A stretch of 16,843 nucleotides of DNA from Chthonomonadales bacterium. Its GTDB lineage: Bacteria > Armatimonadota > Chthonomonadetes > Chthonomonadales > Chthonomonadaceae. The notes beneath the pieces were generated by a model. That model saw nothing but the letters and a program-made list of their open reading frames with translations. It did not search any database and had not been told where the DNA came from. Positions 596-1,748 of the stretch are shown in pieces. Location: the NCBI GenBank assembly GCA_038217285.1, contig JBBQPO010000128.1, forward strand, positions 1 to 16,843, read 5' to 3'. Numbering within the stretch: position 1 is the first letter of the stretch; every line of letters begins with the position of its first letter. Both the position numbers and the translations under genes were made by a program.

Positions 596-623
596 CATTG
601 CTTTCGATGAAGAGAGCACGCAG

Positions 624-652
624 AAAAAGGAGCCGCACTTAACAGCGGCTCC
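624..652 (-). terminator. Intrinsic terminator after the HNH gene
   Basis: Perfect 8-bp stem GGAGCCGC (629-636) / GCGGCTCC (645-652), with AAAAA at 624-628 giving a U-tract on the minus strand. Lies between convergent genes. Confidence 0.8.
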
Positions 653-711
653 CGAGGCAAGTGTGTTGTCCCATCATGAGGACAGCGCGGTGCGTTTTTA
701 CCACAATATCG

Positions 712-1239
712 CTAATCCGGGAGGTCCGCGTAGGTGGGCAGGTAATCCCGCCAGATTTCGTTTTTGCGCCCGACAATGTACTTCGTTAAACTGATGTACG
801 GCACATAGTGCGGGCGGCGCGGCGGGCGCGTCAGGCGCATGCCGATCTGGTGGGCGAGTTTGTCGCTCTTTTTCATGTTGCATTTACGGCAGCAGCAGAC
901 CAGGTTTTCCCAGGCCGCTCCCCCCCCCGCCCGCTTGGGGATGACGTGGTCGATGGTCAGGTCTTTGCTGGCAGAACCGCAGTATTGACAGGTGTAGTTG
1001 TCACGCGCAAAGATGGTACGCCGTGAGAGTTTCAGTTCCGGCATAGGCCGCTTGACGTGTCCGCGCAGCTTCACGACGGTAGGCGTCGGAAACCTTCCGT
1101 CGTTGCCCAGTGTGCCGGCCTCGTCGTCTACGTGCAAAACATCCGCCTTGCCTAAATAGAGCAAGACGATGGCCCGCCGTAAGTTACAGACATTCAGCGG
1201 TGTCCAGTCATTGTTGAGTACCAGTACTTCCCGGTTCAT
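712..1239 (-). CDS. HNH endonuclease (McrA-like, Zn-binding), 175 aa
   Basis: N-terminal VLVLNNDWTPL, then RRTIFARDNYTCQYCG, LTIDHVIP, GG..WENLVCCCRKCN..K. RBS-like AAAGGGGA upstream. Confidence 0.93.
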   Translation of the reverse strand: MNREVLVLNNDWTPLNVCNLRRAIVLLYLGKADVLHVDDEAGTLGNDGRFPTPTVVKLRGHVKRPMPELKLSRRTIFARDNYTCQYCGSASKDLTIDHVIPKRAGGGAAWENLVCCCRKCNMKKSDKLAHQIGMRLTRPPRRPHYVPYISLTKYIVGRKNEIWRDYLPTYADLPD

Positions 1240-1293
1240 GGTATCCGCGTTCCCCTTTCGTCTATTTTAAAAATGTCCCGTCTCCAGCGATCC

Positions 1294-1336
1294 AACAAAA
1301 GACAAGACCCGCCTCTGCGTAAGCACAGAGCGGGTC
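1294..1336 (-). terminator. Terminator/attenuator hairpin in the HNH 5' leader
   Basis: Minus strand GACCCGC-TCTGTG-CTTA-CGCAGA-G-GCGGGTC followed by TTGTCTTTTGTT, about 55 nt upstream of the HNH start. Confidence 0.75.
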
Positions 1337-1406
1337 ACAGTCTCGCCGAAGCGGGATGGAATACATGGTGCAGGTGGTGGAGATGACTCATACTGTCGGG
1401 CAGCAT
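1335..1406 (-). CDS. Putative His-rich leader peptide MLPDSMSHLHHLHHVFHPASARL (alternative in-frame ATGs at 1391 and 1517)
   Basis: 6 His codons within 10 codons (1356-1385). The TGA stop overlaps the first bases of the terminator 5' arm. The start codon is uncertain. Confidence 0.55.
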   Translation of the reverse strand: MLPDSMSHLHHLHHVFHPASARL

Positions 1407-1593
1407 CGTCAGTCTCGGACATACGCGCCAGGACACCTCCCATACCGGCGCGTGGTCGCGCCGTTGTAAGAAATATGTTCGGGCCGCATATGGGGGTTGC
1501 TCTGAACTCCACTGCATTTGACAGCACTCCACCCGTAGAAAGTTGCACGATTTGCGCAGCGAAGTGGCGCTGCTGCAAAAAAAAGGATACTCT

Positions 1594-1623
1594 AGTATAT
1601 CTAATCCGACCGCCCCCTGTCAA
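1594..1623 (-). promoter_or_regulatory. sigma70-type promoter for the HNH leader
   Basis: Minus strand TTGACA (1623-1618), 18-nt spacer, TATACT (1599-1594). Confidence 0.75.
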
Positions 1624-1748
1624 GCAGGCGTTTTCAGCGGTTGCAGAAGCGTCGGCGACAAGGAATTTCACTGTCCTGTGCAGAATCAATAGGCCAGTGA
1701 AACACTCCTCTATTCTATACGCGTTCCCCCGCGCACAGGTTCAACGCT

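Follow-up and report, generated by a model that had tools for sequence, protein, structure and literature searches.

In the leader of pyrE, an upstream open reading frame (uORF) ends at or crosses an intrinsic terminator. The same placement is described for the pyrBI leader and its leader ORF pyrL (available text of PMC5021804 and PMC4824070), and in these leaders a ribosome that is close enough prevents the terminator hairpin, so that an antiterminator is not needed. Here a leader of this layout is described in front of a gene for a small HNH endonuclease, on the minus strand of a contig of 16,843 nt (JBBQPO010000128.1, assembly GCA_038217285.1; hereafter the window) from a Chthonomonadales bacterium of the phylum Armatimonadota. 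It is read, with a probability of about one half (0.5), as a ribosome-dependent attenuator of the pyrBI/pyrE-like occlusion type that controls a nuclease gene of the IshB type. All coordinates of the leader unit refer to the minus strand of the window.

Relevant precedents differ in how the ribosome acts on the terminator. At the Escherichia coli terminator tR2, shifting the stop from 28 bp to 5 bp ahead of the terminator lowered termination from ~90% to <10%, this effect was abolished once translation was uncoupled, and ~10-15 nt of RNA left free between A site and hairpin sufficed for folding (as given in the available text of PMC4824070). With a stall motif introduced upstream of the pyrL hairpin, termination rose when stalling was unrelieved (available text of PMC5021804). 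In hisL of the enterobacterial his operons, a leader ORF rich in His codons is followed by an intrinsic terminator within a 1:2/2:3/3:4 set of pairings. In the long 5′ leaders of mycobacterial whiB7, of erm and of ARE-ABCF genes, a uORF and a terminator couple a stress gene to ribosome performance, with stalling inducing the gene via an antiterminator. TnaC and SpeFL carry a conserved leader-peptide motif at a fixed spacing from the stop codon, and the position of the ribosome at the uORF end decides Rho-dependent termination.

IshB, composed of a PLMP domain and an HNH domain in ~180 amino acids, is the smallest relative of IscB and Cas9 and was named as an insertion-sequence protein (available text of PMC10734217 and PMC11610941). 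The portions of the IshB literature that were covered, which do not extend to the original paper (Altae-Tran 2021), mention neither a leader nor a cellular role, and within the same bounds nothing relevant was found on HNH genes with leader peptides, uORFs or attenuation, or on leader peptides in Armatimonadota. An earlier note on this DNA, made from its letters alone, knew of no description of an HNH nuclease paired with such a leader; likewise, none was found here for a leader peptide or attenuator of HNH or IshB genes, nor for one in Armatimonadota.

Terminator and uORF of the leader

A protein search of species-representative genomes yielded 80 loci (L001-L080). L001-L067 are Armatimonadota-like, either by record title or, where the title names no phylum, by their position among these loci by similarity; L068-L080 come from Dictyoglomaceae, Chloroflexota, WOR-3 and others. 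In addition, the window's own genome (G000; 6.21 Mb) and a genome of the same genus (G087; HNH protein 91% identical) were used.

The GC-rich terminator with a U-rich tail that the earlier note had placed at the stop codon of a leader ORF was found at 1294..1334. It consists of a stem-loop (1334-1308) with one bulge, because of which a simple terminator scan missed it, and of the tail TCTTGTCTTTTGTT (1307-1294); the hairpin energy is −19.3 to −20.6 kcal/mol, and the base CCCGC...GCGGG is conserved. The TGA of the uORF (1337-1335) directly adjoins the stem at 1334. As a separate observation, the terminator base (1330-1334 and 1308-1312) is invariant or nearly so in 14 aligned leaders from the window and its closer relatives while the hairpin inside varies freely; selection on the stem alone would not demand a constant sequence at this base.

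The uORF (1335..1517; 60 codons plus TGA; MQWSSEQ...ASARL*) is part of a listed frame of 1335..1532 that ends ...MSHLHHLHHVFHPASARL* and contains the alternative in-frame starts GTG 1532, ATG 1406 and ATG 1391. Its start is probably ATG 1517, nine nt after the Shine-Dalgarno (SD) sequence GGGTGGAG (1534-1527). Thus the leader ORF of the earlier note is present and coding, but its start probably lies further upstream. The uORF of L003 starts alike (MAWVSQPE versus MQWSSEQP in the window), and G087 matches the window exactly in the SD, in the start codon and over the first seven codons.

Substitutions in the leader follow the reading frame. Over 56 codons, G087 and the window differ by ~13 synonymous and ~12 non-synonymous changes (counted by eye). 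For 21 locus pairs, which are not independent of one another, mismatches at codon positions 1, 2 and 3 were 68/427, 70/426 and 177/425, respectively, with nearly every pair showing the same trend. A codon table of the leaders includes synonymous series such as CAT/CAC, CGG/CGC/CGT, CTC/CTA and TAC/TAT, as well as Ser encoded by AGT versus TCG. Judged by this periodicity, the His stretch belongs to a translated uORF under selection. Nucleotide similarity of the leader fades fast (blastn against the 80 loci gave two weak matches only, L003 and L006), so the conserved motif is seen only after translation. None of seven uORF peptides matched Pfam, and the Atlas returned no usable match. A longer frame of 140 codons (1267-1689, minus strand) in another phase spans the whole leader and the terminator without any conserved motif, and probably owes its existence to the high G+C content.

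Conservation of the arrangement across Armatimonadota

For phylum-wide counts, 65 usable Armatimonadota-like loci were compared with 12 loci from other phyla. A terminator, defined as a hairpin plus U tail at most 200 nt upstream of the HNH start, was present in 63 of the former versus none of the latter. An ORF of at least 25 codons, ending anywhere from 15 nt before the stem to 60 nt past the HNH start, was found in 62 of the 65 Armatimonadota-like loci; upon shuffling of the upstream 217 nt, the count dropped from 62 of 63 to a mean of 39.7 (sd 4.3, max 48, 30 shuffles). Judged by these loci, the arrangement of terminator and uORF before the HNH gene is phylum-wide.

Where the stop codon lies was determined for the 25 loci with a defined uORF. 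It falls 0-3 nt before the stem or in its first 8 nt in 15 loci, and inside the hairpin (+20 to +28) in eight; in one locus (L010) it lies 13 nt before the stem, and in another (L002) 74 nt past the hairpin, beside the HNH SD. Hence in 23 of 25 uORFs the stop codon falls between −3 and +28 nt relative to where the stem begins, as expected of a pyrBI/pyrE-type leader. All 14 Fimbriimonadales-like uORFs pass the terminator, with seven ending 2-46 nt before the start of the HNH match and seven running into HNH. At L086 (G087:C4), a 1-nt indel at the equivalent of ~1352 makes the uORF cross the terminator and stop at the HNH SD; the stop-at-stem and the read-through forms both occur within one genus. 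What these forms have in common is that, by the time a ribosome completes the uORF, it must be standing on the terminator's 5′ arm or be past it.

The spacer between terminator and nuclease gene (1240..1293) carries the HNH SD AAAGGGGA (1258-1251), and a promoter scan found no consensus promoter in 1240-1293. In L026 and L033, the gap from the hairpin to the HNH start is only 22-27 nt, which leaves no room for a separate promoter; HNH transcription there must come through the terminator.

Leader peptide motifs and histidine codons

Two peptide motifs were assigned by inspecting the translations by eye. Motif 1 (MLPDSMSH in the window; 1383..1406) has the core [L/W]-x-D-[S/T/G]-hydrophobic, which was seen throughout the phylum, for example in MLADSFEH, RMLEDGMC, LWSDIERPH and PAWRDTIIR. 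These ~8 residues are the only part of the peptide shared phylum-wide; length and remaining sequence vary freely, and the distance that separates motif 1 from the stop codon or terminator ranges from ~15 to >40 codons (counted by eye). In the Capsulimonadaceae-like loci, MSDSV, MKDCFETH and LWSDIERPH are candidates for motif 1, an assignment by eye that is uncertain. Equating the D of GDCLRH in those loci with the D of LPDS in the window was rejected, as a later reading puts motif 1 nearer to the N-terminus there.

Motif 2 is the His tract HLHHLHHVFH (1356..1385), in which the six His in ten codons reported by the earlier note were confirmed (1385-1356). Relative to the terminator stem, it extends from 51 to 24 nt upstream. 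Peptides of the His frame read SHLHHLHHVFH in the window, HLHYLHHVHHHH in L004 and L006, SHHHEHQH in L003 and LRHRHALYHAH in Capsulimonadaceae-like loci, with up to 11 His per uORF among the relatives; the His codons are not in tandem and are interspersed with conserved Leu, Tyr and Arg. Frames with at least four His in 12 codons near the terminator were found in 19 of the 30 closest loci (the window plus L001-L029), in six of 37 (L030-L066, at scattered places) and in none of 14 (L067-L080). The 14 Fimbriimonadales-like uORFs, recognised via motif 1, are without the tract, which is lineage-specific. The check on orthologue leaders that the earlier note had suggested is answered in two parts: uORF and terminator are conserved, but the His codons only in part of the lineages. 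One locus, L087 (G075:C80), has its promoter ~546 nt upstream and its motif 1 and His tract apparently in different frames, which could be due to an insertion, a frameshift or an assembly error.

Across the six frames of G000, 165 regions with at least five His in 10 codons were found, 54 of them in frames of at most 110 codons. A terminator lay within ~80 nt of the stop codon in three of these 54, and only here was the His run within 35 codons of the stop. The window leader is thus the only combination of a His run near the stop with a terminator in G000, and it is single copy in the genome. No His-rich leader was found upstream of hisD (contig C54) or hisG (C248) of the same genome; this, together with the lack of any other His-run leader with a terminator genome-wide, gives no sign of hisL-type control at these genes.

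Alternative pairing and other RNA structure

The alternative 1:2/2:3 pairing was not found by a duplex-energy test of 27 loci or by RNAalifold on 14 leaders. The duplex energy of the terminator 5′ arm against the upstream 150 nt was no better than that of shuffles in 24 of the 27 loci; complementarity reached z < −2 in three, and was z = +1.29 in the window. In the RNAalifold consensus of the 14 leaders, only the terminator base (7 pairs) was conserved. The window leader as a whole folds better than shuffles (z = −4.5). A long-range pairing of GGGUGGAG with CUCCACC in the minimum free energy fold of the window was dismissed, since no counterpart was seen by eye in L003. Rfam gave no match at gathering score over the whole window and none at E < 1 in 1150-1800 (searched to E 10), and ARAGORN reported neither a tRNA nor a tmRNA. 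The Rfam match and conserved structure that would mark an omega RNA or HEARO element were not found.

Promoter and 5′ untranslated part

At ~350 nt upstream of the HNH gene, the promoter TTGACA-N18-TATACT of the earlier note was located at 1594..1623 (TTGACA, 1623-1618; 18-nt spacer; TATACT, 1599-1594). It is of the sigma-70 type and agrees with the consensus at 11 of 12 positions; the surrounding 1.5-kb region contains two promoter-like sites as compared with 0.7 ± 0.8 in shuffles. Transcription is predicted to start at about 1590-1586. A strict pattern (TTGACN-N16-19-TANNNT) was found in 33 of the 65 Armatimonadota-like loci, with TTGACA/TATACT-like elements at comparable distance.

The 5′ untranslated part (1518..1587) comprises a U8 tract (1584-1577), a small hairpin, the box GTGCAACTTT (1548-1539) and the uORF SD. 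The box, the uORF SD and the uORF start are kept in L001-L003, L005, L022 and G087, and in an alignment of 11 close leaders the promoter, the box (GTGCAAYTTT), the His-codon stretch and the terminator base stand out. The U8 tract (minus strand), which is U7 in the same-genus genome, lies a few nt past the predicted transcription start; RNA polymerase might pause there in a nucleotide-sensitive way, or slip, as in pyr leaders. Leader length ranges from 171 to 429 nt among the loci. In the Capsulimonadaceae-like loci L009, L014, L029, L012, L011, L018 and L013, the uORF ATG is only 7-12 nt past the −10 box, which suggests that part of the phylum translates the leader peptide in leaderless fashion.

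The nuclease gene

The HNH gene (712..1239, minus strand; ATG at 1239) encodes 175 amino acids, with PLMP-like residues 3-63 followed by an IscB/Cas9-type HNH domain at residues 64-145. It has its own terminator (653-628, within a feature of 618..653), with a 9-bp stem with seven GC pairs and a T-rich tail. Its neighbours are a convergent gene for a PSD1 domain protein and a divergent gene for a protein with an F5/8 type C domain. With its own SD, its own terminator and such neighbours, the gene is monocistronic apart from the leader, which confirms its description in the earlier note as a stand-alone gene.

Pfam assigned the protein to HNH_5 (9.7e-15) and also to HNH; the best NCBIfam match was IscB (65.7 bits, residues 72-131), below the whole-protein cut-off, and the matches by sequence in the PDB were IscB and small Cas9. 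An AlphaFold model (predicted local distance difference test, 89) was compared with known structures. Its residues 64-144 superimposed on the HNH domain of a small Cas9 (9k32_A; Z 10.0, root-mean-square deviation (rmsd) 3.0 Å, 81 residues), and its residues 3-63 on residues 2-48 of HfmIscB (Z 6.0, rmsd 1.3 Å, 47 aligned, 21% identity). Since the PLMP sequence match alone is not significant and a Z of 6 is middling, the modelled PLMP domain has moderate support, and to that degree the nuclease would have the IshB architecture of PLMP plus HNH. It resembles IshB in its length, its IscB/small-Cas9-type HNH domain, its IscB-like N-terminus and its lack of a RuvC domain. It differs from IshB, an insertion-sequence protein by name, in being a single-copy core gene for which no carriage by IS200/IS605 was found. 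A complex prediction for the uORF peptide with the nuclease (score 0.00; mark 0.32) speaks neither for nor against binding.

One full-length copy of the gene is present in its own genome, and 181 of 201 sampled genomes of the phylum (161 of the 174 of high quality) carry one copy each, with 67% mean column identity over 42 HNH protein sequences. No Y1 transposase lies on the HNH contig; four Y1 matches are on other contigs, and transposon ends were not searched. By this distribution, the nuclease gene is a vertically conserved single-copy core gene, not a patchy mobile module. The own genome also holds a second, weak HNH-like match (G000:C166:12582-12749, minus strand; E 1.6e-5, 29% identity, residues 75-126). 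Moreover, close HNH relatives occur in loci of Chloroflexota, Dictyoglomaceae and WOR-3, where they are without the leader.

RNA contigs from relatives

Metatranscriptome contigs from ~90%-identical relatives were available from four studies, and all lie inside the predicted unit. They span 716-1564 (X1, which crosses the terminator and covers HNH), 1179-1563 (X2), 1280-1533 (X3) and 1283-1533 (X5). Two of them start at 1563-1564, and two, from two studies, stop at 1280-1283, 11-14 nt beyond the U tail. Taken together, these contigs hint weakly at a leader RNA that ends near the terminator and at a read-through RNA. No contig was found upstream of 1564; the uncovered stretches 600-715 and 1565-1900 are not evidence of absence.

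Discussion

The events that the layout suggests can be set out as follows. A strong promoter would give a leader of ~350 nt, translated as a 60-codon uORF that ends at the 5′ arm of the terminator or, in relatives, in the terminator loop or as far on as the HNH ribosome-binding site. If the first ribosome is close behind RNA polymerase, it would be on the 5′ arm as the 3′ arm emerges, so that no hairpin forms and HNH is transcribed; if it is late or stalled upstream, the hairpin would form and transcription would stop. In the window's lineage, the His tract would make progress of the ribosome depend on charged tRNA-His or on sensing by the nascent His-rich peptide, and His limitation or translation stress would result in less nuclease, not more. 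That ribosome occlusion decides read-through we infer from the arrangement, and polarity and signal likewise.

Ribosome-mediated attenuation, which the earlier note had proposed, is still the best reading of a conserved uORF whose stop codon sits at a conserved terminator. Its other two claims, an anatomy of the hisL type and a nuclease switched on by stalling at the His codons, fared less well. Stop geometry and the missing conserved antiterminator point to the occlusion type rather than the hisL type, from which the locus also departs in its interspersed and lineage-specific His codons. Furthermore, given the 24-51 nt that separate the His codons from the downstream stem, a stalled ribosome would leave the hairpin free and lead to termination and less nuclease. 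The opposite polarity, nuclease off under translation stress, is thus the likelier one on geometry and E. coli precedent.

Among known systems, the pyrBI and pyrE leaders share the placement of the leader ORF on the terminator; their targets are pyrimidine genes as opposed to a nuclease, and the leader peptide here has conserved motifs plus a His tract. Coupling of ribosome and polymerase in pyr leaders is set by UTP-sensitive pause sites, with the U8 tract near the 5′ end as the feature to compare here. The locus shares with hisL a run of His codons in a leader ORF ahead of an intrinsic terminator, but the 1:2/2:3/3:4 pairing was not found, the stop codon adjoins the terminator, the target is an HNH nuclease and not a his gene, and the predicted polarity is the opposite. 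A long leader with uORF and terminator is also common to whiB7, erm and ARE-ABCF, yet no counterpart of their antiterminator was found. TnaC and SpeFL differ in that their termination is Rho-dependent and their motif-to-stop spacing fixed, whereas here the terminator is intrinsic and the spacing variable.

Several observations weigh against occlusion as the mechanism, or against the polarity derived from it. The ORF-placement criterion is passed in ~63% of shuffles, which is a high chance rate, and codon periodicity in Fimbriimonadales-like loci is weaker (63/324, 88/326 and 117/327 for positions 1, 2 and 3). The metatranscriptome contigs show neither single transcripts nor true ends and may include DNA carry-over. 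The peptide is conserved past the needs of ribosome passage, in motif 1 and in an LxHxHxLxH pattern with conserved non-His residues; such conservation beyond the His codons hints at an extra function, as a nascent-chain sensor or a trans-acting peptide. In the Capsulimonadaceae-like loci L014, L023, L009 and L025, there is a second His cluster at only 13-18 nt from the stem, and a ribosome stalled there might occlude the stem, with the opposite polarity. Finally, the polarity is drawn from geometry and from E. coli, and to our knowledge coupling of transcription and translation has not been studied in Armatimonadota.

These points bear on four other explanations. In the hisL-type scheme of the earlier note, stalling on His codons during His starvation, tRNA-His loss or translation stress would relieve termination and turn the nuclease on. 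The strong enrichment of His in the window and its relatives, with related tracts in most of the closest loci, fits this scheme, as does the proximal His cluster of some Capsulimonadaceae-like loci, from which a stalled ribosome could cover the stem base. It is nevertheless improbable: no conserved antiterminator was found in the 27 loci or the 14-leader alignment, and the nearest His codon in the window keeps 24 nt of distance from the stem, so that a ribosome stalled there would leave the hairpin free, as 10-15 nt of free RNA are enough for it to fold (available text of PMC4824070). Moreover, Fimbriimonadales-like loci keep uORF and terminator without the tract, non-His residues of the tract are conserved through synonymous changes, and hisD and hisG lack a His leader. 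A structured non-coding RNA, either an omega-RNA-like partner of IshB or a riboswitch, with the His codons as a by-product, is far less probable still. The PLMP domain of IscB contacts omega RNA, and both the PLMP-like domain here and the z of −4.5 for the leader fold are in its favour; against these stand the lack of an Rfam match, conservation confined to the terminator base, the codon periodicity of substitutions and the wide range of leader lengths.

Two further explanations take up the selection on the peptide itself. The uORF may encode a small His-rich protein acting in trans, for example by inhibiting or partnering the nuclease or by binding metal, with a leaky terminator setting a high ratio of peptide to nuclease as in immunity or antitoxin arrangements. 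This we regard as rather unlikely. It would account for the selection on peptide sequence and not just on His codons, for the consensus promoter and the leaderless-type ATG in several loci, which suggest high expression, and for the overlap of uORF and HNH start in some loci, as in coupled gene pairs; HNH enzymes are, besides, metal dependent. However, only the ~8 residues of motif 1 are shared phylum-wide, no known family matches the peptide, the nuclease gene is a single-copy core gene and not a patchy mobile module, and a trans function does not explain why the stop codon sits so tightly on the terminator. Alternatively, motif 1, the His tract or both might arrest the ribosome on a small molecule or metal, as in TnaC or SpeFL, with the arrest position deciding whether the terminator forms. 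A motif kept throughout the phylum with conservative replacements (D/E, S/T) argues for such a nascent-chain sensor, and the composition rich in His and Arg is reminiscent of the sensor segment of SpeFL. Known arrest peptides keep their spacing, whereas here motif 1 lies anywhere from ~15 to >40 codons away from the stop codon or terminator, and neither a ligand nor an arrest site can be inferred from the peptides, so that this explanation, too, seems unlikely.

The class of uORF plus intrinsic terminator is known; novelty, as far as can be told, lies in the leader-peptide family, in its conservation throughout the phylum and in its target. For annotation, the 'intergenic' 350 nt before the HNH gene contain a real small ORF. 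As a whole, the locus would be a natural, phylum-wide case, beyond the pyrimidine operons, in which ribosomes control a terminator by occluding it directly. In a wider and tentative proposal, which we consider doubtful as a whole, IshB would be a core cellular nuclease throughout the phylum, licensed co-transcriptionally by a dedicated leader peptide (with a D-S/T-hydrophobic motif, and a His tract in two orders) that senses how well ribosomes perform, whether tRNA-His is charged, or a metal or ligand recognised by the nascent chain. The signal read by the leader should tell when the cell wants an IshB-type nuclease and, if the reading is true, would be the first physiological input known for a protein of this type, tied to the translation status of the cell.

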